DNA of 64,000 nt from an uncultured Kofleriaceae bacterium (GCA_964497805.1 CAZCFB010000013.1:4029-68028); one strand, 5' to 3'. Shown: positions 7,754 through 57,276, counted from the stretch's first letter. Notes: generated from the sequence alone by a model not told the origin. Program-made: numbers and translations.

Positions 7754-7845
7754 TTCTGCGCCTGGATCCGCCTCACAGCTTGTCCCATCTCCCATGATGT
7801 CGTACACTTCTGTCCGGAGCGGAATTTTAACGCCAGGAGAGATCT

Positions 7846-10315: not shown

Positions 10316-10452
10316 CGCTCTCCCTCCACCATTAAAATCCTTTGCCTGACCAAGGCTATTGATCTTTTTGCAGCCAGGTCATGAAATAAGAGCGTATAGA
10401 GGCTGTGGAATTTGTATATTCACGCCCTCGTTTATCTATCTGGAGGATCCTG

Positions 10453-15510: not shown

Positions 15511-15513
15511 TGG

Positions 15514-17763
15514 TCAGCGCCTCCTCCGCCACCAGACCAGCAGAGCCAGGCCGAGGGCGCAGAGCGGGAGCAGGACCACCACGAGCAAAAACACCTTGTG
15601 CAGCTGGGCCCGATCAAGGATTGACCTCGCCGACTGACCCGCCGGCGGCCCGGGGAGCGCCCCGAGCTTGTCGTCGCCGGCCAGCCAGCTCACGGCAGCC
15701 AGGAAGAGCTCCCGGTTGTGGTCTTTCACGCGCTGGCCCGACTGCCGGCGGTTGAGCAAGCCCCGCTCGCAGCCGAACACCACGATCCGGGTGGATCGCC
15801 ACTGAACGGCCACCGCCACCGCCGCCGGGCCCGGTGAGTCGAGCGCGCGATCCAGCGTGAGGGGGCGGTCCCCGCGTAGAGAGGCGAGGTCAGCCTCGGC
15901 CCACCCCTCCGCGCTCGTGACAATGAGAGGCGCGGCCTTGAGACCAGCCATGGTGCCCGGCAGCGGGCGAACCTCCCGGCTCAGAGGCCAGACGGTGATC
16001 CGCCCGGCTACCGCGCGCACCGCCGGGTGGTCCGCGTACCCGTCGCGCGTGCCCCAGGTGAGGAGCGGCTGCTCGCCGGGGACCTGCATCTTGTCCACCA
16101 GGATCTTGTGGGGCAGGGCCACGCCCCAGCGGGCCATGAGCGACTCCACGCCAACCACGCCGTGGCGCGTCACCCGGCGGTCCAGCACGGGCCCCATGAG
16201 CAGGAAGAGCCTCCCCCCGCCGCGCAGGAATTTCTCCAGGGCGTGCACCTCGGCCGGGGCGAACGCGCGCCGCGGGCCGCCGATGACCAGCACCCGGCAG
16301 CTGTCGAGCCCGCCGCCCTTGCCCGTGGCGGTTCCCAGCAGCCCCGCCGGCCCCAGGGCCCGCACCGTATAGCCGTCCCGGCGCGCCTCGTCGGCGATGA
16401 TGCCGTACCCCTTCTGGTCGTACGAGTCCACGAGCGCCTCGCCGTGGCCCTGGCTAAAGCAGAGCACCCGCGGCCTCGGGTCGAGCAGCCCCCGCAGGGC
16501 CGTAAGCAGGGCGGCCTCTCCGCGGAAGCCGAGCACCCGGGGCGGCGACACGGAGTGATCCACGCCGGTGGCCATCTGGCTGCTTGTGACCAGCCGCGTC
16601 CGCTCCCCCCCGGAGAGCACCACCACCCCGCGGCGCAGGTCGTCGCCGCTGACGCCAAAACGCCGGGCCAACACCTCCGCCCGGGTGGGCGCCGCGTCGA
16701 TGTCCACGCGCTCCACGGTGAAGGCCCCGCCCGAGCGCTTGGCGAAGCGGTGGAGCACCTCCTTCACCCTGGGGTACATGGATGGCTGGAGCCGGTCGGG
16801 GGGCACCATGAAGAGGTACGCCTTCACCGGCCGCGCCATGGTGCGCAGCACCTGGACCGTGCGCGGCGAGAGGGTGTAGGTCCCCCCGGCGGTCCAGTCC
16901 CACCTGGCGTGGTGCCTGGCGCCCAGGAGGTTGATCAGGACCAGGTTGAGCAGCAGCAGACCCACGCCGAGGAGCAGCCTCAGCCGCTGACGACGGCGGC
17001 GGGGAGCGCGCAGGGCCAAAACCGCGCAGGTGATGCAGAACAGGGCCACGCTGCCGTAGAGGAGCAACGCGCGGCTGTCCACCAGGCCGCGAGAGAAGTC
17101 TTCCATCTGCTGGAACAGATCCAGGGCCCCGGCCAGCTGCCTGAGCCAGGCTGCCTGCACGAAGAGCTTGAGCGGGCCGAGCTGAAGGAAGGAGCCGAGC
17201 ACGGCGAAGGTGGCGATGCCCGACAGGAGCTGGCTCCGGGTGAGGCTGGAACAGAGCACCCCCACCGACAGGGCCGCCGCGCCCAGGGCCAGGGTGCCCA
17301 GGTAGCCGGAGGCCACCACCCCGACGTCGGCCTCGCCCCCAAGGCTGGCGGCGAGCATCACATGGCACAGGGTGGGCGCCCAGAGGAAGACATAGAACAG
17401 GCACACCGCCAGGAACTTGCCCAGCACCACCTGCGCCGCGCCCACCGGGGCCGCGAGGAGGATCTCCAGGGTGCCCAGGCGCCGCTCCCCGGCCAGGGTG
17501 CGCATGGTGAGCAGGGAGATCACAGCGATGACGAAGAGCCAGTAGAAGAAGCTCCCGCCGAAGAAGTAGTTGAGCACCGGCCCGGGCGGACCCTTGGGGT
17601 GGTTGCACAGCTCCAGCAGCACGTAGAAGGCGTACCCCTGCACCAGCAGGAAGAGGGTGAGCACCACCCAGGCCAGAGGCGAGAGGAAGAGCCCCCGCAG
17701 CTCCCGGCCCACCAGGGTCAGGACCAGCCTGGGCTTCCCTGGCGCTCCTGCCCTGTCCCTCAT
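15514..17763 (-). CDS. ABC-2 family permease fused to a GldG-like ABC-transporter-associated domain
   Basis: N-terminal ~240 aa with six hydrophobic helices (FLSPLAWVVLTLFLL...). A C-terminal ~500 aa GldG-like domain ends in a TM anchor. Its start ATG overlaps the ATPase stop (ATGA at 17760-17763). Confidence 0.65.
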   Translation of the reverse strand: MRDRAGAPGKPRLVLTLVGRELRGLFLSPLAWVVLTLFLLVQGYAFYVLLELCNHPKGPPGPVLNYFFGGSFFYWLFVIAVISLLTMRTLAGERRLGTLEILLAAPVGAAQVVLGKFLAVCLFYVFLWAPTLCHVMLAASLGGEADVGVVASGYLGTLALGAAALSVGVLCSSLTRSQLLSGIATFAVLGSFLQLGPLKLFVQAAWLRQLAGALDLFQQMEDFSRGLVDSRALLLYGSVALFCITCAVLALRAPRRRRQRLRLLLGVGLLLLNLVLINLLGARHHARWDWTAGGTYTLSPRTVQVLRTMARPVKAYLFMVPPDRLQPSMYPRVKEVLHRFAKRSGGAFTVERVDIDAAPTRAEVLARRFGVSGDDLRRGVVVLSGGERTRLVTSSQMATGVDHSVSPPRVLGFRGEAALLTALRGLLDPRPRVLCFSQGHGEALVDSYDQKGYGIIADEARRDGYTVRALGPAGLLGTATGKGGGLDSCRVLVIGGPRRAFAPAEVHALEKFLRGGGRLFLLMGPVLDRRVTRHGVVGVESLMARWGVALPHKILVDKMQVPGEQPLLTWGTRDGYADHPAVRAVAGRITVWPLSREVRPLPGTMAGLKAAPLIVTSAEGWAEADLASLRGDRPLTLDRALDSPGPAAVAVAVQWRSTRIVVFGCERGLLNRRQSGQRVKDHNRELFLAAVSWLAGDDKLGALPGPPAGQSARSILDRAQLHKVFLLVVVLLPLCALGLALLVWWRRRR

Positions 17764-18491
17764 CGCGCTCCCCCGGTGAGCCGGGTGAAGAGCTCCTCCA
17801 GCCCGCCGGGCGCGCGGTCCTCGCCCAGGAGCTCGTCCATGGCGCCCTGGGCCGCAACCTCGCCGCGGTCGAGGATGATCAACCGCTGGCACACCGCCTC
17901 CACCTCACCGAGCAGGTGCGATGAGAGGATCACCGTCCGCCCGCTGTCGGCCGCCAGGTCACGGATCAGGCGGCGGACCTGGGCCATCTGGTTCGGGTCG
18001 AGGCCCACCGTGGGCTCGTCCAGGATCAGCAATGGCGGATCTCCAAGCAGCGCGTCAGCCAGGGCCACCCGCTGGCGATACCCCCGGGAGAGCTGGCCGC
18101 ACAGGCGCCGCCGGGCGGAGGCCAGGTCACACAGCTCCAGCACCCGGTCAACCTCCTCCCGCCGCCGGGCCCTGCCCACCACGCGCAGGGCGCAGCGGAA
18201 GCCCAGGTACTCCCCGACCCGCATGTCCACGGGCAGGGGCGCCCCCTCGGCCACGTACCCCAGGAGGCCGCGCACCTGGAGCCCACGCTCAGGAAGAGGC
18301 AGGTCGTCCACCTCCACCCGCCCCGCGTCCGGGGCCAGGAGGTTGGCCAGCACCCGCAGGCATGTGGTCTTCCCCGCGCCGTTGGGGCCGAGCAACCCGG
18401 CGACCTCCCCCCGGCCCACCGAGAAGGTCACATCACGCAGGGCCGGCACGCCGGCGAATGACCGGCACAGCCCCTCGACGCGGACCATCAT
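17760..18491 (-). CDS. ABC transporter ATP-binding protein
   Basis: Walker A GPNGAGKTT, signature LSRGYRQR and Walker B LLILDEP. Confidence 0.85.
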   Translation of the reverse strand: MMVRVEGLCRSFAGVPALRDVTFSVGRGEVAGLLGPNGAGKTTCLRVLANLLAPDAGRVEVDDLPLPERGLQVRGLLGYVAEGAPLPVDMRVGEYLGFRCALRVVGRARRREEVDRVLELCDLASARRRLCGQLSRGYRQRVALADALLGDPPLLILDEPTVGLDPNQMAQVRRLIRDLAADSGRTVILSSHLLGEVEAVCQRLIILDRGEVAAQGAMDELLGEDRAPGGLEELFTRLTGGAR

Positions 18492-18646
18492 CTCTTATCG
18501 TTGGCCGTCGCGAGGCGGCTGGGACCAAGGCCGCGTGGTTTCGCGGCAGCGAAGGCATGCTCGCGGCACGCCGAGCTGACGCGGAGCCGCTTCGGCCGAC
18601 GGTAGCGGCCGCCGCAGCAGGCAGGGCGGTGAGAGATGATGGTCAA

Positions 18647-19615
18647 TCACTTGGTGGACTCGGGGGCGCCCTCTTTGGGGTGAGGCTTCTTCGGCGCCGG
18701 CGGGGGCTGCGGCGATGGCTGTGTCGCGTTGGCGATGGCCTCGAGGCTGAGCTGGATGGCGCGCTTCTCCGCCTCGTCGCTGGTGCGCTTGCGCAGGGCG
18801 CGCAGGGCGCCGGCCCCTGCCTTGAGCCCCTGCTGCCCCAGCGCGCGGATGACCGCCAGGCGCACTGCCTTGCTGCCGTCGCTCAAGGCCAGCCCCAGGG
18901 CCTTGGCCGTGGACTCATCGCGGGCCTGCCCCAGCAGCGCCGCGGCCATGGCCCGCTCCTCCTCGTCCTTGGAGAGGCCGAGCACCTTGATCAGCCCGGT
19001 GCGCTGGGCCTCGTAGGCCAGGAACGCCTTCTGGGCGTTGGTCTGGTCCTTGAGGCGCAGGTAGATGCCGGCCAGGTCCGAGTAGGCGGTGAGCTGATCC
19101 GGGTTCAGGGTCAGGGACTGCCTGAGCATGTCCGCTGCCTCGGCCAGCTTGCCCCCCTCCTCCAGCCCGATGGCCAGCGCGCGATACGCGTCAGGATCTT
19201 GCGGCGACAGCTCCACCACCTTGCGGTACGCCTCGAGGGCCGCGTCCTTCTGCCCCATTTCGGCCAGCGCCGAGCCGAGGCCGAGGTAACAGTTGGCGCT
19301 GAGCTTACCCCCCTCCTGAGCGGCGATGGCCCGCCTGAACGCCTCCACCGCGGGCTCGAGCCGCCCCCCGCGCAGCAGGCCCTTGGCCTGTTCGTAGTAG
19401 ATCTTCTGGGCCAGGGGGCCCTTGCTCGGGATATCGGGCGCGCGCTTGGCCGCCACTTTTTTGGCCTTGCTCGCCGGCTCACGCTCCTTGTCAGCGTGCC
19501 GCTTGGGCGAGGGGCACCCGCCGCTCAGGACCAGGCCCATGGCCAGCGAGAGCATCATCGCCGCTGTAAAGAGCCGCCTCACCGCCTGGGCCCCTCCGTG
19601 GCTGCCGCGGGCCAC
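18647..19615 (-). CDS. TPR-repeat lipoprotein with C-terminal HEAT-like repeats
   Basis: Signal plus lipobox MMLSLAMGLVLSGGC followed by TPR-like units. The true start is probably the internal Met near 19558, which removes the apparent overlap with the upstream kinase gene. Confidence 0.55.
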   Translation of the reverse strand: MARGSHGGAQAVRRLFTAAMMLSLAMGLVLSGGCPSPKRHADKEREPASKAKKVAAKRAPDIPSKGPLAQKIYYEQAKGLLRGGRLEPAVEAFRRAIAAQEGGKLSANCYLGLGSALAEMGQKDAALEAYRKVVELSPQDPDAYRALAIGLEEGGKLAEAADMLRQSLTLNPDQLTAYSDLAGIYLRLKDQTNAQKAFLAYEAQRTGLIKVLGLSKDEEERAMAAALLGQARDESTAKALGLALSDGSKAVRLAVIRALGQQGLKAGAGALRALRKRTSDEAEKRAIQLSLEAIANATQPSPQPPPAPKKPHPKEGAPESTK

Positions 19616-21387
19616 TCGCTGGTGGGCACCGGCGCCTGGCCACGTTCGGCCGGCAGGGTGATGGAGAACGTGGTCCCCTCACCTGCCTGGCTGTGGTAGT
19701 CGATGAGGCCGTCGTGTTCCCGCACGATGCGCTGCACGATGGCCAGGCCCAGCCCGGTGCCGTTCTCCTTGCCAGCGGTGGCGAACGGCTTGAACACCTT
19801 GCCCTCCATCTCCTCCGGGATGCCCGTGCCGGTGTCGGAGAAGGTGAAGATCAGGTTGCCAGCCTCGCGGTCCACCTTGCAGGTGAAGGTGCCGCCGTTG
19901 GGCATGGCCTCGGCCGCGTTGCGCGCCAGGTTGTGGAACACCCGCCGCATCTTCGGTTCGTCGAAGAACGCCTCCGCCGTGTAGCTGGCGTCCACCTCCA
20001 GGGCGATCTCCCGCCCGGTGAGCAGGTGGCGCAGGTGCTCCTCCATGTCCTTGAGGAAGCGGTTGAGGTACACCTTGCGGATCAACACATGCGACTCGCC
20101 CCGGGCGAAGGCGAGCACCTCCTGCGTCATGGCGGTGAGCACCGCGGTCTGCTTGACGATGCTCTCGGCGAACTCGGTGCGCTGGGCGCGGTCCTCCGCC
20201 TCGGTGATCAGCTGGGCGTAGCCCGAGATGATGGTCAGCGGCGTGCGCAGATCGTGAACCAGGCTGGAGAGGGCCTGGCCGATGGAGGCGAGCCTGCTCT
20301 GCACCTCCTTCTCCTGCTTGGCGCGGTCCAGGTGGATGGCGTGGGCGATGCGGCTGGCCACCAGGGTTAGCAGGGTGCGGTCCTCCTGGTCGAAGTCCCG
20401 CCCGCCCACCTTGTTGAGCAGCTCCACCGCTCCGAGGGTTCCGTCCTGCCCGAGCAGGGGCACGCACAGAATATTGGCCGGCACAAAGGCCAGCTGGCGG
20501 GCGATGTCGCCGTGGTAGCGCGAGTCGTTGATGGGATCGTTTGTGCAGGCCGTCTGCCCGTTCTCGATGACCCAGCCGCAGATCCCGCGCCCCAGGGGCA
20601 CGGAGATGGTCCGGATCCGTTCCCGCACCTTTCCCGTGGCGTTGGAGAAGAAGATCTGCTGCCGCTCATGGTCGCACAACACCACGCTGGAGGCCTCGGC
20701 CCCGATGAGCTCGGTGGTGCGCTCCAGCAGCCGGTCGAGCAGCTCCTCCAGGGACTCGGCCTCGGTGATCTGCTTCTCCACTTCCAGCAGCAGGTCCAGC
20801 TCCCGTGCCCTGCGCTCAAGTTTTTGCTGTGTGGCCATGAGCTGGCGGTTCTGCTCCACCTGGGCCAGGTAGAGCCGGGAGTTGTCGATGGCCACCGAGG
20901 CGTGGCTGGCCAGGGCGGTGAGCACCTCCTCGTCATCCGCGGTGAAGGGGCCGCCCTTCTTGTTGAGCACCTGCACCACCCCGGTGAGGCGGCTCTTGTG
21001 GTCCAGCATGGGCACGCAGAGGATGGAGCGGGTGCGGTAGCCAGACGCCTGGTCCACCTCCTGGTTGAAGCGCGGGTCGGTGTAGGCGTCCTTGATGCGC
21101 ACCGCCTTCTCGGACTCCGCCACCCACCCGGCGATGCCCTGGCCCAGGCCCAGGCGGATCTCCTTCATCCCCTCCCCTTCCAGCACCTTGGTCCAGAGCT
21201 CCTCACCCGACTCGTCCAGCAGGTAGAGCGTGGTGCGGTCCGCCTCCATCAGTTCGGTGAATTTGCTCACCAGAAGATCCAGCAGGTCATCCAGGGCGAG
21301 GGTGGATCCCACCGCCCGGGTGATGAGCAGGATGCTTCGGTTTTTCTGTCGTTCTCGCTCGAGCTGGTCCATGACCTGTACCGTCAA
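19579..21387 (-). CDS. sensor histidine kinase with two GAF domains (no receiver domain, cytoplasmic)
   Basis: Two GAF-like segments. HisKA box HDLRTPLTIISGYAQL and an HATPase_c with N/G boxes (GTGLGLAIV). Confidence 0.8.
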   Translation of the reverse strand: MTVQVMDQLERERQKNRSILLITRAVGSTLALDDLLDLLVSKFTELMEADRTTLYLLDESGEELWTKVLEGEGMKEIRLGLGQGIAGWVAESEKAVRIKDAYTDPRFNQEVDQASGYRTRSILCVPMLDHKSRLTGVVQVLNKKGGPFTADDEEVLTALASHASVAIDNSRLYLAQVEQNRQLMATQQKLERRARELDLLLEVEKQITEAESLEELLDRLLERTTELIGAEASSVVLCDHERQQIFFSNATGKVRERIRTISVPLGRGICGWVIENGQTACTNDPINDSRYHGDIARQLAFVPANILCVPLLGQDGTLGAVELLNKVGGRDFDQEDRTLLTLVASRIAHAIHLDRAKQEKEVQSRLASIGQALSSLVHDLRTPLTIISGYAQLITEAEDRAQRTEFAESIVKQTAVLTAMTQEVLAFARGESHVLIRKVYLNRFLKDMEEHLRHLLTGREIALEVDASYTAEAFFDEPKMRRVFHNLARNAAEAMPNGGTFTCKVDREAGNLIFTFSDTGTGIPEEMEGKVFKPFATAGKENGTGLGLAIVQRIVREHDGLIDYHSQAGEGTTFSITLPAERGQAPVPTSEWPAAATEGPRR

Positions 21388-46927: not shown

Positions 46928-48140
46928 GATGCCTCACCCACCACCCCTGGCCCTGGCCCTGGCCCTCCTAATCCTCCCTCACCCTGCCCTTGCCCAGGAC
47001 AACAGCCTCCTCATCGCAGCCCTCCCGCCCGGCGGCACCCACGCCGCTGACCGCGCCATCCACGCCCGCCTGGGTGAAACTGTCCAACTCTTCGCCGTGC
47101 TCAAGCGTGGCCGCGGCCGCCGCGCCGTCTACCACACCGACGCCCCTGCCCTGCGGCTGCGCGGCAGGCGCGTCGCGAAGTCCAGGATCCGCCCCTGGTC
47201 CTCGGCCAGCGCGTCGTCCCTTCAGTGGCTGCGGGTGGAGCCCCGCCCCCACCATGTGGACACAGATCCCCCCAACCCCGGGAACCCGGCCTACTCCAAC
47301 GCCATCCTGTTCGGCAAGAAGCACGGCTCCTGGCTCGGCTTCGACACAATCGAGTACCACGAGACCGACATCCCCGGCGCCTCGGAGAGCGCGCTCACGG
47401 TTAGCCGGGTGCGCCCCACCAACGATAAGGTGAACGTGCACGGCGGGCTCGGCACCATGCGCTACCGGGTGCGCGCCCGGATCGGGGCCCAGGAGCTGGG
47501 CTCACACGGGGCCGCCGAGGTCAGCCGCCAGGGCATCTCCACCAGGGTGATGCGGGTGACCTTCCGCTCGGGGGACTCCCTGGCAGGACACCTGCGGGGG
47601 TACTTCAATGTGCCCAACGTCTTCGGCAGCGCAGGAGGAAGCGGCAAGCGGCACCAGGCGGCGCGGTACCAGGGGGCAGACTGCGCCGACGTGCTCATCG
47701 GCGCTGCCAGGGAGGCCGGGGCCAGGGTGCCCTACACAAGCGTGGCCGGGCTCCGCGCCCACACGGTGAAGCTCACCCCGAGGCTGCTCCTGCGCCGGGA
47801 CGGCCTGTACAGCGAGGACGGCCTCACCCGCCAGACCCTGCGCTTCAACGAGGAGCTGAGCTCGGGTGACCTCATGTTGATCGACTACAAGGGCTTCGAC
47901 GGCTCCCCCCGCTCCTGGGACCACATCGCCATGATCGACCGGGACAGGGGCAAGGCGGGCGTGTTCGACCCCGACGATCCCGTGCTGCACATGGGCTACC
48001 TGTACGGCCTCACCGAGGCGCCGGCCCACACCGAGGGTCCCGCGTACGTCCAGTTCAGGCGCCTGAAGAAGAAGTACCGGCGGCAAATGGATCGCCGCCG
48101 GCGCTACTTGCAGCGCAGGGCGGCCAGGCAGGCGCGCTGA
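46926..48140 (+). CDS. hypothetical secreted protein with a basic C-terminal tail
   Basis: Signal ALALALLILPHPALAQD. The C-terminal tail is rich in R/K/Q. Confidence 0.4.
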   Translation: MMPHPPPLALALALLILPHPALAQDNSLLIAALPPGGTHAADRAIHARLGETVQLFAVLKRGRGRRAVYHTDAPALRLRGRRVAKSRIRPWSSASASSLQWLRVEPRPHHVDTDPPNPGNPAYSNAILFGKKHGSWLGFDTIEYHETDIPGASESALTVSRVRPTNDKVNVHGGLGTMRYRVRARIGAQELGSHGAAEVSRQGISTRVMRVTFRSGDSLAGHLRGYFNVPNVFGSAGGSGKRHQAARYQGADCADVLIGAAREAGARVPYTSVAGLRAHTVKLTPRLLLRRDGLYSEDGLTRQTLRFNEELSSGDLMLIDYKGFDGSPRSWDHIAMIDRDRGKAGVFDPDDPVLHMGYLYGLTEAPAHTEGPAYVQFRRLKKKYRRQMDRRRRYLQRRAARQAR

Positions 48141-49303
48141 GTGGGCAGGCCCGAGAGGCCGGCTTGCATGGCGACGCCCACGGTATCTCCGGCCCACGCG
48201 GTCGCCGGCCTGCTGGAGGTGAGCAGGCAGCCTGCCACCGCCACCGCCCCCCCCACGGGCGCGCCGTCCCTGTTCAGCAGCCGGGCGGAGAGCCTCAGAT
48301 CGGCACGCTTTGCGTCGTACACCACAACGAACCGCTTGCCAGACCATGCCAGGGCCATGGGGGCGTCTCCAGCGCCCACGCCGCTGGCCACCTTGCGCTC
48401 AGGCCCCAGGCCGCTACCCATGGCCTGAACAATCCTGAACATCAGATCCACCTTGCCAGGGTTGGTGGCCTGCTGGAGGTAGAGGATCCCCACCCGGTCA
48501 GGGCTCACGAGGACGTAGCGCGCGGCCCAGGGACCGGACCGCTGGGCTACCACGGCTGGGAACGCCAGCATTCTCCCGTCCTGTGCCAGCCTGGCCAGCA
48601 TGTAGTGCTTGCCCCACCAGCCCGCCAGGAATCCTCCGTCGGACCTCTCGGACAGCCAGAGGTCGTTGTAGCTGTCGCCAGTCACAACCCTGCGCGCCGC
48701 CCCTGTCTTGCCAGCGCTGTCCATGGCGCGGAAGTTGATCGTCCCCACCTTGCTGGGGTGGGTGTAGATCATCCCGTACCCGCCTTTCCCCCGCGCCGCC
48801 AGCGCCTGGGCCATGGCCTGGGCCGTGATCTCGAGCGTCGGCCCCAGGGGCTTACCCGCGCCGTCGAACCTGGCCAGCACCAGCTTCGGCACCATGGATC
48901 CGGTGGTCGAACCCCGCATGAACAGGGCGGCCCACTCCTGCGGCCCCACCGCCAGGGCCGCCGGCGCGCCCGGGATCGCGCTCGAGACCACCGCGCCCGC
49001 CGTCGGTGATGGCTTCAGGCCAGCGCCGAAGGTTGCGAACCGCAGCTCCAGATCGTTGGTGCCTGGTTTGCGCGTGGTGGTCCACGAGACCCCGAGGAGG
49101 CCGCCCCTCCCTGCGATGGAGGGCGCGTGGCTGTCCTTTCCGGGAGGCCCGAGCTCTGCCGAGCCCAGGGATACCAACGAGCTGCAGGCAGCCGGGGGAA
49201 CGGCGCCGTCAGCTTCAGGAGAGGTGGCCTTGCCGGCCAAACCGGAGCGGCCGCAACCAGAGGCAAAAACTGGGAGGACAAGGGAGAGGATCAGGAGGCG
49301 CAT
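48104..49303 (-). CDS. hypothetical lipoprotein
   Basis: Start taken at MRLLILSLVLPVFASGC (lipobox). Confidence 0.4.
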   Translation of the reverse strand: MRLLILSLVLPVFASGCGRSGLAGKATSPEADGAVPPAACSSLVSLGSAELGPPGKDSHAPSIAGRGGLLGVSWTTTRKPGTNDLELRFATFGAGLKPSPTAGAVVSSAIPGAPAALAVGPQEWAALFMRGSTTGSMVPKLVLARFDGAGKPLGPTLEITAQAMAQALAARGKGGYGMIYTHPSKVGTINFRAMDSAGKTGAARRVVTGDSYNDLWLSERSDGGFLAGWWGKHYMLARLAQDGRMLAFPAVVAQRSGPWAARYVLVSPDRVGILYLQQATNPGKVDLMFRIVQAMGSGLGPERKVASGVGAGDAPMALAWSGKRFVVVYDAKRADLRLSARLLNRDGAPVGGAVAVAGCLLTSSRPATAWAGDTVGVAMQAGLSGLPTQRACLAALRCK

Positions 49304-49324
49304 GCCTCCAGGGTACACCTACGA

Positions 49325-50218
49325 TTAAAGCAGGGTCTGGGCGCCGTCCTCGAAGGCCATGAAGCTATCCTTGCCCAGCACCTCCAGCAGGGGCCCGTTG
49401 TTGGCCACCTCGTCGGTGTCGGTGGTCTGCAGCAGGTCCTTGTTGAAGATGGAGACGAAGTAGGTGCTCGCGATGAAGAGCTGCTTCGGCAGGTGCAGCT
49501 TGAACACGTTCTTGCCGATGAGCCCGCACAGGATGTCGGTGATGTCGTCCAGGGGGATCGCCCTGGGCCCGCCGATATCGAAGGCCTCGCCCTTGAACCG
49601 ATCCTTCTCGATGAAGAAGTTGATGGCGTGGTTGAAGTCGTCCACATGCACCGGCTGCCGGGTGTACCTGCCGTCGCCGATGACCGGGATGGCGGGCAGC
49701 TTCTTGATGAAGTTGACCAGGGCGTGGAACGACTGGTCGCGGGCCGCCTTGTGGTCGGGCAGCAGCGGACCGTATGGCGCCGCCGGGCGCAGGCTCACGT
49801 GGGGCACGCCCGAGGCCTTGGCCGCGTTCTCGTCGTCGATCTTGGACTGGGCGTACTGGTTCAGCTTGGAGAAGTTCACCTGCGAGGAGCTGATGTAAAC
49901 CAGCTTGGCCCCGGAGATTTTGCACGCCTCCAGCACGTTGACCATCATCTTGGTGTTGATGTCGCGGGCGTTGTCCTCGGTGATGGCCGCGGCCATGTGC
50001 ACGATGACGTCCGGCTCGGTGGAGGCCAGCATCTGGGCTGACATGGGCCGGGTCAGGTCAGCGGTGAGGCAGGTGAGGTTGTCCGCGGTGAAGCCCAGCG
50101 GCGTGGACCGCACCTGGGCCACCAGCTTCCAGTCAGGGTGGTTGCGCAGGGTGTACTTGATGTAGTGAGCGCCCAGGAATCCGGACGCGCCGGTAACGGT
50201 GACGGTTAGAGGGGCCAT
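49325..50218 (-). CDS. NAD(P)-dependent epimerase/dehydratase-family SDR
   Basis: TGASGFLG Rossmann motif and catalytic YAQSK. Confidence 0.7.
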   Translation of the reverse strand: MAPLTVTVTGASGFLGAHYIKYTLRNHPDWKLVAQVRSTPLGFTADNLTCLTADLTRPMSAQMLASTEPDVIVHMAAAITEDNARDINTKMMVNVLEACKISGAKLVYISSSQVNFSKLNQYAQSKIDDENAAKASGVPHVSLRPAAPYGPLLPDHKAARDQSFHALVNFIKKLPAIPVIGDGRYTRQPVHVDDFNHAINFFIEKDRFKGEAFDIGGPRAIPLDDITDILCGLIGKNVFKLHLPKQLFIASTYFVSIFNKDLLQTTDTDEVANNGPLLEVLGKDSFMAFEDGAQTLL

Positions 50219-51087
50219 CTGTCGTCTCCCTTGGCCAGGTAACGCACGCCCTCGTCGAAGTCGATGAGCGGCATGTCAAAGGTTTCGATGAACTTGGCCG
50301 GATCGGCCACGCGGTCCTCGCCGATGGTGTTCATCTGGTCCGCGTCAGCGCTCTTGGTCAGGGTGAAGAGCAGCTTGAACATTGCCGGCGGCAGGGGCAC
50401 GGGCACGTAGGTCTCCACGCCCACCTCCCGGGCCAGCAGGTCCATCATCTCCATCCAGGTGTACGCCGTGGGAGACCCCATCTCGAAGATGTCGTTGGGG
50501 TATATCTCCTCGGTGATCATCTTGTGCACGGCGGTGGCGATGTCCCAGATGTAGCAGGGCGTGCGCTTGTACTTGCCGTTGCCCACAACCGGCACCATGT
50601 GCTTGCGCAGGGCGTTCATGAAGGTGTCGTACTTGGGCTCGCCGAAGGCGTACATGGTGTCGGGGCGCAGGATGACGTACTTCATGCCCGACTTGCGCAG
50701 CTCGTGCTCGCTGTCCAGCTTGGCGTACTTGTAGAAGTTGTTGCACCGCATGGAGGCGTAGAAGGAGCTGAAGAAGATGAACCGCTCCACGCCCCGCTCG
50801 CCCGAGTAGTCCAACAGGTTCTTCATGGACACCTCGTTGGCGTGCAGCAGGTACGGCGTGGCCTGGTCCGCGGCGGTGTGGATCACCACGTCGGGCTTGT
50901 AGTCCTTGATCGGGTCGTAGGTGTTCCAGTCGGTCAGGTCCACCACATGGGACTCGAGCTTGGGGTGGAAAACCTTGGGCGGGACGAAGTCCACGCCGAT
51001 GACCTTGTCCACGTTCTTCTGTAGGGCCAGGTAGAGCGCAACCCGGCAGCCGGAGAAGCCGCTGGATCCCGTGAGCAGTACTTGCAC
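50206..51087 (-). CDS. NAD(P)-dependent epimerase/dehydratase-family SDR
   Basis: TGSSGFSG Rossmann motif and catalytic YKYAK. Confidence 0.7.
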   Translation of the reverse strand: MQVLLTGSSGFSGCRVALYLALQKNVDKVIGVDFVPPKVFHPKLESHVVDLTDWNTYDPIKDYKPDVVIHTAADQATPYLLHANEVSMKNLLDYSGERGVERFIFFSSFYASMRCNNFYKYAKLDSEHELRKSGMKYVILRPDTMYAFGEPKYDTFMNALRKHMVPVVGNGKYKRTPCYIWDIATAVHKMITEEIYPNDIFEMGSPTAYTWMEMMDLLAREVGVETYVPVPLPPAMFKLLFTLTKSADADQMNTIGEDRVADPAKFIETFDMPLIDFDEGVRYLAKGDDRWPL

Positions 51088-51190
51088 TTGAGCCTCCTTA
51101 TTGGGGGTCGTGTCCGAGTGGGGCTTATATACGGGCTACGCCGCGGTGTGTCAACGTACTGTCGCTGCTACTGCAGCGTCCGGAGTGGGG

Positions 51191-52528
51191 CTACAGAGGA
51201 GTGTCCCGCTGGTACACCTCCAGCGATTTCACAGGCGCGCCGGCGCTGTCCAGGCCACCGGAGATCAGGACGCTGTTCTTGCCCAGGCGGTCCACGCGCG
51301 GGACAGCGCGCTGCACGGCGATGTCCGAGCTGCTCACCGCCTTGAGGGTGATGGCGTCCAGCAACTCGACCTTGCTGGCCAGGGCGGCGTCCCCCTCCCC
51401 TCCCAGCACAACCAGGCGGGCGCCCACTACGATCGCCTGGTGCCCCTTGCGGCCGGCGGCCAGGGCGTCCTTGTAGTGCGTGACCTTCAGGGTCCTGGGA
51501 TCCACTCGCCAGATATCCCGTATGGCCTTACCGGCCGAGTCCGCGCCCCCCACCAGGAGGAAAGTGCCGTCGCTCATGGCGCACGCCGCGGCGCCGGAGT
51601 CGGGCACCGTGCCCGCGAGGGTCACGGCCTGGGCCGAGAGGGAAGACCGGGTGAACACCTCCACCTTGCCCGCGCCAGCGACGAAGGCGTGCCCACCCAC
51701 ACCGGCGGCCACCGGCGCTTTGCGGGCGGCGGCGGATCGGGCGGAGAGCTTGCGCAGGCCCGGCACCGAGGTGGAGGTGCCTGGATCCAGCTGGAGCAGG
51801 GTGTCCAGCGCCACGCCCTTGGCGTCCACACCGCCGGCGATGAGATAGGTCCCGTCCCCCAGCGGGGCGGAGGCAGCTCCCTTGCGGCGGGCCAGATCGT
51901 CCAGCTTGTCAGCGAAAGATGTCCAGGAGGAGCCATCGTAAGAGAGGATCTTGCTGGCCATGGCCGAACCGTCGTGGCCCAGGGCAATGGTGACGCAGCG
52001 GCCGCCACAGGGGGCCATCACAGCGCCAACCCGGGACTCTGGCAGGGCCGGAAGGTCCTTCATGGAATGGGTGAAGAAGTCATACAAAGCAGCTTGTTTA
52101 TTCAAAGCAAAGAACACACCAAATCCGACCAATGACTGCGTCTGCACGCCTGCGCCGGACAGCTTCACTTCTGGCTTCAGCTTGCTGGCCCTTCCGGCCA
52201 GGGCCACGAGCAGTGAGACCTGTCCCTCCTCGGGCACCAGCAACATGGGCGGGGTCTCGCCGCGGGCGGTGATCTTGCCAGCGGTGGCGCCCTCCAGGGT
52301 GATCACCCCGGCGGCGCTCTCCACCTCCACCTCCACCTCGATGTCGATCCTTTTGGGATCTGTCACGGTGAAGTTGCGGTCCACGGCAGGATCGGTGACA
52401 TGGAGGCGCACCGTGTCCACACCGGCCAGCGGATCCGGCCCGGGGGGGACAACGATCTTCAGATCGAGCACGGGCGGGTCCGAACATGCGGCAAGGAGGA
52501 TGAGCAGGAGGGGGAGGCCCCGGTACAT
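51191..52528 (-). CDS. Kelch-type beta-propeller lipoprotein
   Basis: Start MYRGLPLLLILLAACSD (lipobox). This ATG overlaps the rSAM gene stop (ATGA at 52526-52530). It contains repeated xxGG beta-propeller blade motifs (LIAGGVDAKG, LLVGGADSAG, VVLGGEGDAA, LISGGLDSAG). Confidence 0.6.
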   Translation of the reverse strand: MYRGLPLLLILLAACSDPPVLDLKIVVPPGPDPLAGVDTVRLHVTDPAVDRNFTVTDPKRIDIEVEVEVESAAGVITLEGATAGKITARGETPPMLLVPEEGQVSLLVALAGRASKLKPEVKLSGAGVQTQSLVGFGVFFALNKQAALYDFFTHSMKDLPALPESRVGAVMAPCGGRCVTIALGHDGSAMASKILSYDGSSWTSFADKLDDLARRKGAASAPLGDGTYLIAGGVDAKGVALDTLLQLDPGTSTSVPGLRKLSARSAAARKAPVAAGVGGHAFVAGAGKVEVFTRSSLSAQAVTLAGTVPDSGAAACAMSDGTFLLVGGADSAGKAIRDIWRVDPRTLKVTHYKDALAAGRKGHQAIVVGARLVVLGGEGDAALASKVELLDAITLKAVSSSDIAVQRAVPRVDRLGKNSVLISGGLDSAGAPVKSLEVYQRDTPL

Positions 52529-53610
52529 CAGATGCCCTGGCGGTCCAGCCAGCAGAAATCCCCCGGCTGCACCAGGCGCTCGTGCAGGCCGCCGCCCAGG
52601 CAGAGGGAGAAAAAGGAGCACCCCTTGCAGTGCCCCTCCTTGCGCCACTTCAGGTCACGGAAGGCCTTGAACTCCCGGTGCCAGATCTCGGAGAAGCGGC
52701 GCTCCAGGGCCGAGCCCTGGGCCCACTCCCGGGGCATGGAGGGGCAAGCGCTCACCTGGCCATCGCACAGGATGGAGGCCACGCAGAGCCCCGCGTAGCA
52801 CTGGCCCATCTCCGGGCGAACCGACAGCTCCCGGTCCACGCCGAGGAAGCCGCCGCAGGAGAAGCGGACGCCAGTGTCACCCTCCTTCTCCTGTTTGCGT
52901 TTGTCCTCGACGTACTGGAACAGGCGGTTGATGTGGTGCGGCTCCATCCAAAGCTCGGGATCCGGCGGACCGGAGACCCGGCCCATGCGGTCGATGGTGA
53001 TAACCCGGTAGTGGGTGGCCCCGGCGGCCCGCACAGCCTGCTCCACCTCCTCCAGGCTCTCCAGGTTGGCCGGGCGCACGCAGGTGATGGCCTCCACCAC
53101 GTTCATGCCCACCTCGCTGCAGTGGCCGATGGCGGCCAGGGCCTTGTCGTAGGTCCCCTTGCCCCGCATGGCCTCGTGCTCCTCCCTGAGCCCGTCCACG
53201 CTGATGGTGATGGTGTTCATGCCGGCCTCGGCCAGCAGGGAGGCCTGTTTGCGCCCCAGGAGCACGCCGTTGGTGACGATGCAGGCCTGCATGCCCAGGC
53301 GGTGCATGCGGTCCACCACCTGGAACAGGTCCTTTCGCATGAGCGGCTCGCCGCCGGTGATTGAGACGAAGATGCGGCACGGGTCGAAGTCCTCGGCGAT
53401 GGTGTCGAGGATGGCGAAGATCTGGTCGGTGCTCAGCTCCTCGTGCGGGGAGCGCGCCTCGCAGCTTGAGCCGCAGTGCACGCATTGGAGGTTGCACTTG
53501 AGGGTGCACTCCCAGAAGAGGTAGGTCAGTTCAGGCCTGGCGAAGAGCTTCTTGCGGCGCTCCATCTCGCGCCGGATGGCGACCAGCTTGGGAAAGTCTT
53601 TGGGTTTCAT
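52528..53610 (-). CDS. radical SAM enzyme with a C-terminal SPASM/twitch-like Cys-rich extension (anSME / peptide-maturase-like)
   Basis: CNLQCVHC (Cx3Cx2C), the GGEPLM SAM-binding motif, and C-terminal CYAGLCVASILCDGQVSAC...CKGCSFFSLC. Confidence 0.8.
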   Translation of the reverse strand: MKPKDFPKLVAIRREMERRKKLFARPELTYLFWECTLKCNLQCVHCGSSCEARSPHEELSTDQIFAILDTIAEDFDPCRIFVSITGGEPLMRKDLFQVVDRMHRLGMQACIVTNGVLLGRKQASLLAEAGMNTITISVDGLREEHEAMRGKGTYDKALAAIGHCSEVGMNVVEAITCVRPANLESLEEVEQAVRAAGATHYRVITIDRMGRVSGPPDPELWMEPHHINRLFQYVEDKRKQEKEGDTGVRFSCGGFLGVDRELSVRPEMGQCYAGLCVASILCDGQVSACPSMPREWAQGSALERRFSEIWHREFKAFRDLKWRKEGHCKGCSFFSLCLGGGLHERLVQPGDFCWLDRQGI

Positions 53611-53628
53611 TCAGCAGGAGGGCGCGGC

Positions 53629-54111
53629 TCAGGAGGGCTGGCCGCCATACTTGGGCGTGCCGCCGTACATCGGTTTTGGTCCGCCACTGTCTGCCTTGCC
53701 GCCGTACTTCACCGAGGGACCGCTGTCCACCTTGCCGCCGTACTTCACCACGGCGCCGTCCAGCTTGACGCCGCCGTACTTCACCGTGGGGCCGGTGTCC
53801 GGCTTGACCGTCATGTCCGGCTTGCCGCCGTACTTGGTCATGGCCATGTCAGGCTTGCCGCCGTACTTCACCACACCCTGATCGGGCTTGGGCACGGAGC
53901 CGTCCTGCTTCTGCCCGCCGTACTTCACCACGGGGCCGGTGTCCTTGGGGGGCACGCCGCCGTACTTGGGCGTATTGTCCCCATCGTCATCAGCGCAGCC
54001 GGAGATGAGGGATGTGATGCTCACGGTGCCGCCGAGCACCAGGAAGGCGCCGGCAGCAGATGACATCAGGTCCACCACGAAGGAACGACGATCTTTCTTT
54101 TTGCCAGTCAT
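53629..54111 (-). CDS. Tat-signal lipoprotein consisting of nine (V/T/P)KYGG repeats
   Basis: MTGKKKDRRSFVVDL twin-arginine motif, hydrophobic core, lipobox LISGC. The mature part has eight KYGG and one MYGG spaced 6-17 residues apart. In the DNA the repeat unit is AAGTACGGCGGC. Confidence 0.6.
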   Translation of the reverse strand: MTGKKKDRRSFVVDLMSSAAGAFLVLGGTVSITSLISGCADDDGDNTPKYGGVPPKDTGPVVKYGGQKQDGSVPKPDQGVVKYGGKPDMAMTKYGGKPDMTVKPDTGPTVKYGGVKLDGAVVKYGGKVDSGPSVKYGGKADSGGPKPMYGGTPKYGGQPS

Positions 54112-54196
54112 CTCTAAGTACCCCTGTTTGCCAAGGACTTACATTCTATGCCCGTGCGGTCCATGTGGTCAACGAGGCGGGCCACCACTCTATTCC

Positions 54197-56545
54197 CTAC
54201 AGGTACCCGAACCGGCGCCTGAGCACCCAGTCCAGCCCCAGGAGCAGCACGGCCAGGGCCAAGGACCACCACCGGCTCCAGAGGGCCAGGTCCTTGCGCC
54301 AGTTGGCCTGCAGCACCCGGGGCTGCAGCAGCTTCAGGTCCGCGGGCAGGCTGGCGGCCTTTTCCAGGTAGCGCCCCCCCGTGACCCGGGCCAGGGCGCG
54401 CAGCAGGGCCGGCCGGGTTCCAGGCTCCCGTAGCTCTGGCCCGGCGGGCTCCACCAGCACCACCTCCTCCAGGGCCGTGGTCTGCCTCCCGCCCAGGGTG
54501 GCCGTGGCGCGCAGCCGGTAGGCGCCCGTGGTCCGCGGGGTGAAGCTCAGGGCCAGCTCCCCCTTGCGGTCGGTCTTCCCCTTCCCCGCCTTTCCCTTTG
54601 GCGCCGGCTTCCCCATGGCGAGCGCGGGCGGGATGATCTCGTGGGACACCTCCAGCCCGGCGGCCGCGCTGTAGTCCGGGTTGTGCGCCCGGACCACCGC
54701 CCTCACCTGCGAGCCCAGACGCACCCGATCCTGCTGGGCGATGATGCGCAGGTACTTGAGCTCCGGGTCACGGATGAGCCAGCGGATGGCGTTGCGCCAG
54801 AAGCGATCGTAGGCCTGGCGCCCGCTCCCCTGCCCGGCAGAGAGGAAGGCCCAGTGCCAGGATGTGTCGGTGGTCAGGGCCAGGGTGCGCCCCTTGCCAG
54901 CTTCAGCGGCCGCCAGCACGGGCATGGCCCCGCCGCCGCGAAGGCGCAGCTTCGGGTGAGTCATCAGGGATGTGGCCCCGGGGCTCAGGCTCGCCACGAG
55001 GTTCACCCCCTCCAGCGCGGGCAGCCCGGCGATGATCCGGGCGGTGTGTTCGCTGGAGTTGCCGAGCTGCAGGATCGGGTGGTCACGCCCCTGCCTGGTC
55101 ACCCTCGGTTTGAACCGCTCCACCGAGGTGAGGCGCCCCGGGTTGGCGCGCTCCGGCAGCAGCCGCACGGGCAGCACGGGCTCCAGCACCGTGCCAGCGT
55201 ACCCGCCAGAGCTGAAGCTCAAGTCACCGCCTAGCATGGCCAGGCCGCCCCCCTGAACCACGTAGCGGCGGATATGGTCCAGGTAGCCGCCGATGCCGTA
55301 CGGCCCGTAGTTGAAGTTCTGCAGCAGCACCAGGTCGAAGGAGCCCAGCTCCTCGGAGAAGAGCTCGTCAGTGGGGAACGGGATCAGGGAGAGCTCGTTC
55401 TGGTTCACGGCGGTCAGGTCGGACGGGGTGCGCAGAATAAAGAAGGAGATCAGGTCCACGTTGGGGTTCCGCTTGAGCAGCCGCCGCAGGAACCGCTGGT
55501 CCCAGGAGGGGCGGCCGACCAGCTGCAACACCCGCACCCGATCGCGGATCACCTTGAGCACAAAAGAGCGCCGGTTGTTGTGCCGGAGCGCCTCCCCCGG
55601 CAGCCGGGGGAGTGAGACCTCGTACACCCTCTTGCCCACCTTCTGGGGCACAAACTCCAGCCGCACCCGGTAGCGCGTCTTGCCCTTTGTTACGTGCACA
55701 CGCTGGCGGGCCACCACCGTACCGCTGCCGCCGCCGCTTCCGCCCTCGGTGAGGGTCACCTCCAGGCGGCCCGGCTTGACTCCCAGGGCCAGCACGTCCG
55801 CCTCCACCCGCACCGCGTTGCGCACGAAGGCGAAGTGGTCAACGTACAGCTCGGTGATTGCCAGGTCGCGCACGGGATCCGCGCCGGCCAGCACGGTGTG
55901 CACGGGCACGGCCAGTTCCTCCAAAAAAGCCAGGGCGGCCTGGGGCAGCTTGGCCCCCGCGCCCAGCAGGCTGCCGTTGTCTGCGCCGTCGCTGATGATC
56001 ACGACCCCTGCCAGGTCAAGGCGGGGGGTGCGGCGCTGCAGATCCGTGAGCGCCTCCAGGATACGGGTGGCGCTGTCTGCAGCTGGCAGACCTTCCTCCC
56101 AGGCGCCGAGACCCTGCCCAAAGCTGTACAGGTCGACCAGGTGCTGCTTGCGCCACTGCCGGAGCTGGGGCTCCGACTTTTTGAGCAGGGCGGCTGCCCT
56201 GGTGAGGCGGGTGGGGCTGCCCGGGCGGGCTCGGATCCCCATGGAGGCCGAGGTGTCCACCAACACGGCCAGGTGGTTGGGGAGCCTGGTGACGCTGCGC
56301 AGCTGCACGGCGGGCTGGAGGATTATGGCCAACACCGCCGCCACGGCCAGGATCCGGGTGGCGAGCAGGGTGAACAGCACCCGCCGGCGGCGCTCCCGGC
56401 GGTAGCCCCAGACGGTGAGCAACACCGTGAGCATGGCAGCCGCCACGGCGAGCGCGATGCCGGGGGTATCCCAGCTCGTGAGGAGGACCAGGCGCCAGTC
56501 TTCCAGGGTGGTGGGCGGGGTGGGCTGCACCTGGGTAATGTACAT
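54197..56545 (-). CDS. VWA-domain membrane protein with an N-terminal double-TM anchor (BatA-like architecture)
   Basis: Two N-terminal TM helices, a MIDAS-like LAVLVDTSASMG motif, a large C-terminal domain, and a terminal TM helix. Confidence 0.55.
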   Translation of the reverse strand: MYITQVQPTPPTTLEDWRLVLLTSWDTPGIALAVAAAMLTVLLTVWGYRRERRRRVLFTLLATRILAVAAVLAIILQPAVQLRSVTRLPNHLAVLVDTSASMGIRARPGSPTRLTRAAALLKKSEPQLRQWRKQHLVDLYSFGQGLGAWEEGLPAADSATRILEALTDLQRRTPRLDLAGVVIISDGADNGSLLGAGAKLPQAALAFLEELAVPVHTVLAGADPVRDLAITELYVDHFAFVRNAVRVEADVLALGVKPGRLEVTLTEGGSGGGSGTVVARQRVHVTKGKTRYRVRLEFVPQKVGKRVYEVSLPRLPGEALRHNNRRSFVLKVIRDRVRVLQLVGRPSWDQRFLRRLLKRNPNVDLISFFILRTPSDLTAVNQNELSLIPFPTDELFSEELGSFDLVLLQNFNYGPYGIGGYLDHIRRYVVQGGGLAMLGGDLSFSSGGYAGTVLEPVLPVRLLPERANPGRLTSVERFKPRVTRQGRDHPILQLGNSSEHTARIIAGLPALEGVNLVASLSPGATSLMTHPKLRLRGGGAMPVLAAAEAGKGRTLALTTDTSWHWAFLSAGQGSGRQAYDRFWRNAIRWLIRDPELKYLRIIAQQDRVRLGSQVRAVVRAHNPDYSAAAGLEVSHEIIPPALAMGKPAPKGKAGKGKTDRKGELALSFTPRTTGAYRLRATATLGGRQTTALEEVVLVEPAGPELREPGTRPALLRALARVTGGRYLEKAASLPADLKLLQPRVLQANWRKDLALWSRWWSLALAVLLLGLDWVLRRRFGYL

Positions 56546-56616
56546 TCACAACTCTGCCTTGTCCCCGCTACCTGTATGTGGCATCAACTTAATTCCCACC
56601 ATATAGGGGTATTTAA

Positions 56617-57276
56617 ATGTCTACCCAGGTAATGACCCTCTACGGCACCTCCATCGGCAAGAAAGTGGTGATGGCCGTGACGGGGATCGTGTTCTTCGGC
56701 TTCGTGGTGATTCACATGATCGGCAACCTGCAGATCTTCGCCGGGGCCGAGCAGCTCGACGGCTACGCCGCCTTCCTCCACTCCAAGCCGGCCGTGGTCT
56801 GGGCCCTACGCCTGATCCTGCTCGGCGCGGTGGGCCTCCATGTGCTGGCCGCCACCCAGCTCACCCTGCAGAGCTGGCGGGCCAGGCCGCGGAAGTACGT
56901 CAAGCAGCGTTACCAGGAGTCTGACTACGCGGCGCGCACCATGCGCTGGAGCGGCCCGCTGCTCGGCCTGTTCATCGTGTACCACCTGCTCCACCTGACC
57001 ACTGGCCAGGCGCACACAACCTTCGTGGCGGGCAACGTGTACGCCAACGTGGTGGCCGGCTTCTCGTCCCCCGCCATCGCCGGCGTCTACATCGTGGGCA
57101 TGGTGCTGCTCGGGCTGCACATGTACCACGGGCTGTGGAGCCTGTTTCAGACCCTCGGCGCCAACCACCCCAGGTACAACCACCTGCGCCGGGCCTTCGC
57201 CGCCACGGCGACCCTGATCGTGGTTTGCGGCAACATCTCCATGCCGGTGGCTGTGCTCGCCGGAATCATCAAATAG
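56617..57276 (+). CDS. sdhC: succinate dehydrogenase cytochrome b subunit (b558 family)
   Basis: Five-TM, His-containing profile. It lies directly upstream of the flavoprotein and Fe-S subunit genes. Confidence 0.75.

Follow-up and report, generated by a model that had tools for sequence, protein, structure and literature searches.

A KYGG-repeat lipoprotein beside a radical SAM/SPASM enzyme in Myxococcota: a predicted substrate-splicease pair

A repeat lipoprotein next to a radical SAM/SPASM enzyme

In a 64,000-nucleotide (64-kb) stretch of DNA from an uncultured Kofleriaceae bacterium (GCA_964497805.1 CAZCFB010000013.1:4029-68028), here called the window, a gene for a lipoprotein precursor built of KYGG repeats lies directly upstream of a gene for a radical S-adenosylmethionine (SAM) enzyme with a SPASM domain. 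We argue that this pair is most likely a system of the splicease type, which removes tyramine at X-Tyr-Gly sites, and not a new kind of system. An initial annotation made from the sequence had described four minus-strand genes here; open reading frame (ORF) calls recover all four (Table 1), and the ATG of the enzyme gene indeed begins 18 nt past the stop codon of the repeat gene.

The repeats noticed at the outset are genuine, and there are nine of them: eight KYGG and one MYGG. The DNA pattern AARTAYGGNGG occurs eight times in the window, always within the repeat gene, where 0.14 occurrences are expected by chance and none of 100 shuffled sequences reached eight. The repeat period of the gene is 33 to 36 nt. 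The N-terminus of the protein, KKKDRRSFVVDL...LISGC (start MTGKKKDRRSFVVDL), carries a twin-arginine motif followed by a lipobox, so the export signal attributed to the putative substrate is legible in the sequence. Read in this way, the protein has the features of a lipoprotein of the twin-arginine translocation (Tat) type, namely DRRSFVV, a hydrophobic region, and LISGC. Pfam and NCBIfam gave no match to the repeat protein, even at E<=10, and a protein search with it gave just five matches because its sequence is of low complexity; its counterparts in related genomes were located through the loci of the radical SAM enzyme instead.

The repeat and enzyme ORFs share one reading frame and are separated only by TGA-AAPSC-TGA (53611-53631, minus strand). 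Readthrough of both stops would join substrate and enzyme, but the in-frame spacing is not kept in a close relative, whose spacer is 25 nt (L098).

Table 1. Features of the KYGG locus and its surroundings, in window coordinates
Feature	Position	Strand	Basis or remark
Predicted substrate, 160-aa lipoprotein precursor with nine X-Y-G-G sites	53629..54111	-	ORF and translation
X-Y-G-G array	53642..53967	-	Pattern count, translation
KYGG codons	53957-67, 53915-25, 53858-68, 53825-35, 53771-81, 53735-45, 53699-709, 53642-52	-	
MYGG codons	53659-70	-	
Twin-arginine codons R8-R9 of signal peptide (DRRSFVV)	54085..54090	-	Read from sequence
Lipobox L35-I-S-G-C39	53995..54009	-	Read from sequence
Predicted splicease, a TIGR04133-like radical SAM/SPASM enzyme of 360 aa	52528..53610	-	Pfam, NCBIfam
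CxxxCxxC (C39, C43, C46), radical SAM [4Fe-4S] cluster	53473..53496	-	Reads CNLQCVHC; invariant in alignments A1 and A3
SPASM region, residues 271-331	52618..52800	-	Pfam PF13186; invariant columns; CKGCSFFSLCLGGGLH
Kelch beta-propeller lipoprotein	51191..52528	-	Pfam Kelch matches; lineage-specific neighbour outside the conserved unit
782-aa membrane protein, GATase1_like	54197..56545	-	Pfam PF07090, 4.7e-13; upstream neighbour outside the conserved unit
Candidate sigma-70-like promoter TTGACC-18-TAGAAT	54143..54172	-	Consensus match only; directly 5' of the KYGG gene
Two SDR epimerase/dehydratase paralogues	50206-51087, 49325-50218	-	Downstream, same strand
404-aa lipoprotein	48104-49318	-	Downstream, same strand
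Terminator-like hairpin	48076-48102	-	After the 404-aa lipoprotein gene

The radical SAM/SPASM enzyme

The enzyme matches Pfam Radical_SAM (PF04055, 1.2e-25) and SPASM (PF13186, 2.6e-8), in agreement with the SPASM-like C-terminus first assigned to it. Its best match in NCBIfam is TIGR04133 (294.2 bits, E 1.1e-87; residues 10-345 onto positions 5-335 of the 350-position profile), at a score that lies below the curated cutoff of 425 bits. Lesser scores were obtained with MftC (131.8 bits), AhbD/NirJ models (~115-123 bits), TIGR03913 (113 bits), TIGR04103 (109 bits), and WgkB (90 bits), and the top sequence match in PDB is BlsE. An AlphaFold2 model (pLDDT 89.4) has a full SPASM-type fold, and its top Foldseek matches are SkfB, BlsE, SuiB, anSME, PqqE and ChlB, with a template modelling score of 0.68-0.71 for SuiB. 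Five of these six nearest solved structures (SkfB, SuiB, anSME, PqqE and ChlB) are peptide- or protein-modifying enzymes, and BlsE, the second match, acts on a nucleoside. To our knowledge, no structure of a splicease has been solved.

In the SPASM region, CKGCSFFSLCLGGGLH, Gly takes the place of the usual fourth Cys of CX2CX5CX3C and is followed by an invariant His, whereas the splicease PlpX has CRGGC at that point. The whole TIGR04133-like superfamily has the pattern C-x2-C-x5-C-x-G-x3-H with invariant Gly and His (alignments A1 and A3; enzyme residues 328-343, in the region of window positions 52618-52650), and ligation of the auxiliary cluster in this superfamily may therefore be unusual.

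The initial annotation had also considered that the enzyme might be an orthologous anSME that always accompanies sulfatases. No anSME model is found among its 25 best NCBIfam matches, and no sulfatase gene occurs in the window flanks or at related loci; the resemblance to anSME is one of fold only, and this identity was dropped.

Conservation of the gene pair in Myxococcota

A scan of one genome per species yielded 13 loci with homologues of the enzyme at 57-82% identity, all in Myxococcota-type metagenome-assembled genomes (MAGs). In 12 of these, which are all for which the upstream DNA can be read, the enzyme gene is immediately preceded by an ORF for a signal-peptide lipoprotein that has two to eight (K)YGG(P) sites. 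Further contigs add lipoproteins with four sites (L095), with seven (L096), and with 11 YG, 10 of them YGG (L098). Together with the window, a lipoprotein with 2 to 11 (K)YGG(P) sites is thus directly upstream of the enzyme gene at 16 of 16 testable Myxococcota loci (L001-L008, L010-L013, L095, L096, L098 and the window; enzymes 57-88% identical), as the proposal of a substrate and its maturase had implied.

The signal peptides of these partners are mostly of the Tat type, with RRSF(F/L/V) in 12 of 16 distinct relatives, KRSFF in one (L006), and RGSW or RDSW in three others, and all relatives have an (A/G)C equivalent of the lipobox after the hydrophobic region. The N-termini have the common pattern RRSF(F/L/V)..(M/L)S.AAG.W...(A/G)C, conservation that exceeds what a Tat motif requires. 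At a locus where the enzyme is 60% identical to that of the window, the partner (L010:3701-4159) contains five near-identical PDAAYGGPPGLDATTP repeats with AAYGGPP, in which Ala stands for Lys before Tyr.

In tblastn searches with the other proteins of the window, the GATase1-like protein, the Kelch protein, both short-chain dehydrogenase/reductase (SDR) epimerases, and the 404-aa lipoprotein were found only in L001 (82% enzyme identity) and in L098 and L099 (88%). At enzyme identities of 67% or less, the flanking genes are unrelated, and no neighbour besides the lipoprotein is common to the loci. Because these neighbours are lost while the pair persists, the conserved unit is two genes, not four. 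We therefore dropped the four-gene operon as the unit, since synteny is gone at 67% identity or below and the membrane and Kelch genes accompany the pair only at 82% or above.

Relation to TIGR04133 and TIGR04134

An exhaustive homologue search covered 1.84 billion representatives, among which the Myxococcota enzymes fall into a single cluster at 50% identity. The closest full-length relatives outside it that bear CxxxCxxC are at most ~41% identical and are TIGR04133-like, and P0146 is a true TIGR04133 member (512 bits). The window enzyme and TIGR04133 have in common the family invariants FWE.T..CN..C.HCGS.C and C.G...H (alignment A1). In a rough neighbour-joining tree with a single outgroup, bootstrap support for the Myxococcota clade is 100%, and this clade, which we place as a sister of TIGR04133, lies within the TIGR04133-like radiation. 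The locus had been called undescribed, but databases have for a long time coupled TIGR04133 to TIGR04134, the family titled "radical SAM-associated putative lipoprotein". NCBIfam release 20.0 gives no function to either family, and in the searchable literature we found no paper naming TIGR04133, TIGR04134 or KYGG together with radical SAM.

Among the representatives, P0129 is 49% identical to the window enzyme and is without CxxxCxxC (LFWECNERGAEGEG...); it may be a degenerate pseudoenzyme of the radical SAM type. P0128, P0132 and P0135 (736-854 aa) each match the window enzyme in two stretches, with a TIGR04133-like module at the C-terminus, and P0128, the one of the three whose sequence was read, has an additional N-terminal radical SAM/SPASM module.

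Alignment A1 was used to retrieve 80 metagenome loci. Signal-bearing partners adjoin the enzyme gene, upstream or downstream, and their scaffolds are very divergent: a globular domain (Bacteroidota-like), a coiled coil, a Pro/Thr-rich tether, or a C-terminal transmembrane segment. The sites read include C..EYGTP, MYGTP, EYGVP, VYGSP (three times), LYGVP, MYGVP, MYGVRPP and CYGPAP. Where at least 500 nt is available on both flanks (57 loci), an adjacent same-strand ORF with a hydrophobic N-terminus and YG(x0-2)P or YGG is present at 51 loci; among 2101 non-adjacent ORFs, the share with these features is 2.3%. Of the six loci without such a neighbour, three can be put down to script artefacts or to variants. 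In a logo of the site from 69 partner proteins, Tyr and Gly are each conserved at 100%, the preceding position is K50/M14/E8/C7/A6/L6 (%), position +2 is G/P/T/V, and positions +3 and +4 are mostly Pro. Elsewhere in the superfamily, Val is also found at X.

Some partners vary in other ways. One subgroup of partners (at L022, L050, L059, L043 and L018) uses the Cys of the lipobox as the X residue, with sequences such as FMACYGPAP, SACYGPMM, QACYGPLR and TACYGDFY. The L018 partner has ACYAPP, in which Ala replaces the otherwise invariant Gly. A partner at L078:4497-5474 (GC 28%) has four (A/L/T)LYG sites and no signal peptide, and the system is therefore not confined to exported proteins.

Two neighbours of true TIGR04133 enzymes of Bacteroidota type score 139 and 97 bits on TIGR04134 (a 150-position model with a cutoff of 39.8); the window KYGG protein has no match to this model at E<=10, and its L002 homologue has none at E<=1. 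The TIGR04133/TIGR04134 pair is alike in plan: a radical SAM/SPASM enzyme without a RiPP (a peptide made on the ribosome and modified after translation) recognition element (RRE) is encoded beside a signal-peptide lipoprotein that has an X-Y-G-x-P site shortly after the lipobox Cys. In the window, the first site after LISGC39 is TPKYGGVPP, starting at residue 47, a layout also seen in TIGR04134 proteins (C..EYGTP, C..MYGTP). Unlike the enzymes of TIGR04133, that of the window scores below the cutoff, and its separate clade occurs solely in MAGs annotated as Myxococcota. The KYGG partners lack the globular domain of TIGR04134 proteins and carry 2-11 copies of the site, in the form (K)YGG(P). 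Their signals are mostly twin-arginine ones, whereas the signal of TIGR04134 proteins is of the Sec type.

Comparison with spliceases

Radical SAM/SPASM spliceases of the PlpX type excise a tyramine equivalent (C8H9NO, -135.06 Da) at X-Y-G, in which X is variable (PMC11414181, PMC9811515, PMC11626197). Although the initial annotation did not recognize KYGG among known motifs, the site that defines spliceases is X-Tyr-Gly (PMC11414181, PMC11626197, PMC9811515). Known spliceotide systems are PlpX(+PlpY)/PlpA, PcpXY/PcpA, RhaX/RhaA, RcsX and RasX (PMC11414181; PMC11626197). Binary spliceases that lack a Y protein exist, and in these a leader helix activates the enzyme (PMC11414181, PMC11626197, PMC9811515, PMC10533398, PMC11002830).

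We recovered the PlpX sequence beside PlpA3 in the Pleurocapsa PCC 7319 locus. It is homologous to the window enzyme, with 31% identity over 334 residues (E 1e-36). Among NCBIfam models, PlpX matches TIGR04103 at 824 bits, and TIGR04133 is its fifth-best match at 148 bits. Ten proteins taken from the tail of the 150 representatives nearest to the window enzyme comprise six TIGR04133-like, three TIGR04103/TIGR03913-like, and one AhbD-like sequence. The PlpX clade interleaves with divergent TIGR04133-like sequences in the neighbour-joining tree described above, which is only suggestive. The sites themselves are also similar: the superfamily partner sites MYGVRPP, VYGSPE, LYGVPS and MYGVPV look like splice sites of the PlpA family, whose cores include AVAMYGVIRP, VIYGSPW, ALYGIFP and AMYGLPT and whose tags read PIRP(L/G)YGLPI.

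The window locus has two features of splicease systems, CxxxCxxC and SPASM in the enzyme and an adjoining precursor with conserved X-Tyr-Gly at nine sites. In spliceases, too, the substrate is encoded alongside and its Tyr-Gly is invariant, with a variable residue in front and frequently Pro behind, and both multi-site precursors and binary systems are known among them. There are also differences. The window enzyme lies outside TIGR04103 (109 bits against a cutoff of 725) and has Gly for the fourth Cys of CX2CX5CX3C; the leaders of splicease substrates are of the Nif11/NHLP type, whereas the window substrate has a signal peptide and a lipobox, with Lys as X in most of its nine sites; and the window locus is without a peptidase-containing ATP-binding transporter (PCAT) protease or an exporter. 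No conserved Y or RRE protein, protease or transporter was found in the related loci, nor any conserved small ORF besides the substrate, so that any splicease-type system here would be binary.

MftC, a radical SAM/SPASM enzyme and the second-best NCBIfam family, abstracts hydrogen from a peptidyl Tyr of MftA. It requires MftB, an RRE protein, and a precursor that ends in Val-Tyr, whereas the Tyr residues of the window protein are internal; the window enzyme also falls far short of the cutoff of 265 bits. No PqqD-like gene was found near the enzyme gene, and an MftC-type reaction was dropped for want of a C-terminal Tyr and MftB. SuiB and WgkB have the SPASM fold, and the window repeats do place Lys beside an aromatic residue, but Lys is not conserved in the family and the enzyme has no N-terminal RRE domain. 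A triceptide-type cyclophane was dropped because of the Gly at +2.

Proposed mechanism and alternatives

The combination of an invariant Tyr-Gly with a variable X, beside a SPASM radical SAM enzyme, leads us to propose splicease chemistry. The cytoplasmic enzyme would modify the Tyr-Gly sites of the precursor prior to export; at each X-Y-G site the tyramine equivalent would be cut out and the backbone rejoined, by chemistry of the PlpX type. The modified protein would then be exported via Tat and undergo a signal peptidase II (Lsp) step, with cleavage and lipidation at Cys39. General export machinery would in this way take over from the protease and exporter that ordinary RiPP clusters have of their own, and the conserved signal peptide RRSFxVxxMSxAAGxW may double as the recognition leader. 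Export by Tat and Lsp, with the signal peptide as leader, would account for the lack of conserved genes for a protease, an exporter or an RRE at these loci. The product would be a membrane-anchored, disordered protein with several electrophilic ketoamide groups. On balance, we consider it more likely than not that the enzyme acts in this way, as a splicease in a two-component system whose product is a lipoprotein bearing several ketoamide sites. The adjacency and conservation of the pair, the invariant Tyr-Gly and the homology to PlpX are observed; the lipoprotein's role as substrate, the splicing, its timing relative to export and the inhibition of proteases are inferred from them.

Several observations weigh against this proposal. 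Similarity scores do not single out spliceases, given that TIGR04103 (109 bits) is no better a match than MftC (132 bits) or AhbD/NirJ (~115-123 bits), and the tree of the enzymes is rough. With Gly and His in place of the fourth Cys of PlpX, the enzyme may have a different auxiliary cluster and perhaps a different chemistry. Among the natural splice sites described in those parts of the literature available to us (M, L and an unmodified D at X), neither Lys as X nor Gly at +2 occurs, and we found no mass or biochemical data on TIGR04133-like enzymes in the searchable literature.

The same conservation of the pair and of Tyr-Gly would fit any reaction directed at this dipeptide, such as a Tyr-centred C-C or C-O cross-link, cleavage of the Tyr side chain, or a change at the Gly alpha-carbon. 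The departure from PlpX in the auxiliary-cluster ligands is compatible with such chemistry, as is the fact that MftC, the best characterized match after TIGR04133, is also directed at Tyr. However, the MftC reaction needs a C-terminal Tyr and the sites here are internal; a three-residue cyclophane needs a beta-carbon at +2, where most Myxococcota sites have Gly; no Cys is conserved for a thioether; and a variable X in X-Y-G is the recognized hallmark of spliceases. We therefore think another Tyr-Gly chemistry rather unlikely. Far less credible is the Lys-Tyr or Lys-centred cross-link or hydroxylation, giving an adhesive surface lipoprotein, that the initial annotation favoured. Streptide- and WGK-type radical SAM enzymes do cross-link Lys to aromatic residues, WgkB scores 90 bits, and Lys precedes Tyr in eight of the nine window sites and in most Myxococcota sites. 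Yet all five sites of L010 have Ala in its place, the window itself carries MYGG, and in the wider family the residue is M, E, C, L, V or A, leaving only Tyr and Gly invariant; we rate the Lys-centred reading as highly improbable.

It is also conceivable that the lipoprotein is not a substrate, and that the enzyme acts on a small molecule or cofactor in the manner of AhbD/NirJ or BlsE, its adjacency reflecting co-regulation or an accessory role. The AhbD/NirJ scores, the PDB match to BlsE, and the globular domain that Bacteroidota TIGR04134 proteins also carry would fit this idea. Partners with hugely divergent scaffolds nevertheless share only the Tyr-Gly site and a signal peptide, a pattern expected of a modification site and not of a binding partner, and no conserved haem or cofactor genes are nearby, which makes a small-molecule role quite improbable. 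A different question is whether the pair acts within a genuine operon of four to seven genes, with the Kelch protein, the SDR epimerases and the membrane protein serving to process the KYGG protein further or to display it. All genes are on one strand, the enzyme and Kelch genes overlap by 1 nt, a promoter-like site precedes the KYGG gene, a hairpin follows the gene that ends at 48104, and synteny extends to three close relatives. But only the two-gene pair stays at enzyme identities of 67% or less, and the overlap with the Kelch gene becomes an 85-nt gap already in L098, at 88% identity. We consider a functional unit of this breadth improbable.

Returning to the splicease proposal, the presumed product hints at a function. 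Ketoamides are a pharmacophore that inhibits Ser and Cys proteases, and Lys at P1 suggests trypsin-like proteases as targets. Up to nine Lys-derived alpha-keto-beta-amino acid groups may be displayed on an envelope-anchored disordered tether. We tentatively suggest, while regarding it as doubtful, that the Myxococcota KYGG(P) proteins are many-ketoamide lipoproteins made by a splicease clade that uses the signal peptide as leader, and that they serve as a multivalent covalent trap for trypsin-like proteases, or else that the clade has an undescribed Tyr-Gly chemistry. The latter is conceivable because the auxiliary-cluster ligands differ from those of PlpX.

Significance

What is new here is a Myxococcota-specific sister clade of TIGR04133 with a partner that consists almost wholly of tandem X-Y-G-G(P) sites behind a mostly Tat-type signal. 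If our proposal is correct, tyramine splicing reaches beyond leader-bearing peptides to exported lipoproteins, with Tat and Lsp in place of a dedicated protease and exporter, and a function could be assigned to the TIGR04133/TIGR04134 pair, which is widespread in gut and environmental Bacteroidota-like contigs. The enzyme would be compact and free of a Y protein, would act on up to nine tandem sites, and would accept Lys at X, properties useful for placing ketoamide handles. For Myxococcota, the proposal would further suggest that proteases are inhibited by envelope-anchored proteins.

These results are limited in value because Scott et al. 2022 had already exploited the logic of searching for YG-rich neighbours of SPASM radical SAM enzymes; according to a review, they found spliceases in this way and report 27 validated and 939 predicted systems from 189 genera (PMC10849128, PMC10533398). 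TIGR04133-type pairs are plausibly already among these predicted systems, and the Myxococcota clade may be included.

Neighbouring genes and other features of the window

The Kelch gene downstream of the enzyme starts with the ATG at 52528 (N-terminus MYRGLPLLLILLAAC), and Pfam Kelch families support the beta-propeller lipoprotein originally described. Its junction with the enzyme gene is TGATG, with a 1-nt overlap at 52528, and not the ATGA that had been reported. The tight spacing noted for the four genes applies to this junction and to the 18 nt between the KYGG and enzyme genes, but not to the 85-nt gap between the KYGG gene and the gene for the 782-aa protein. The latter was taken for a VWA protein; Pfam gives GATase1_like only and no VWA at E<=0.01, despite an LVDTSASMG stretch visible in the sequence.

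The sole sigma-70-like site in 48000-57000, TTGACC-18-TAGAAT, sits within this 85-nt gap, and the transcription unit therefore more likely begins at the KYGG gene. Together with the terminator-like hairpin, this candidate promoter suggests a transcription unit that runs from the KYGG gene to 48104 and excludes the 782-aa gene. The genes for the two SDR epimerase/dehydratase paralogues within it share 13 nt (50206-50218); the proteins have ~26% mutual identity, and L001 and L098 both retain the two together.

Rfam and tRNA scans of the window gave no matches. The nearest relatives of the window sequence are uncultured Myxococcales/Polyangia MAGs, and G+C content across the window is ~0.62-0.72; it reaches 0.71-0.72 at 14001-20000, compared with 0.61-0.66 in the flanking 10-14 kb and 20-24 kb. 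Two adjoining large ORFs on the plus strand, 7831-10200 (789 aa) and 10390-12810 (806 aa), have lipoprotein-like N-termini and are apparent tandem paralogues, and the ORFs antisense to them encode near-identical translated peptides.

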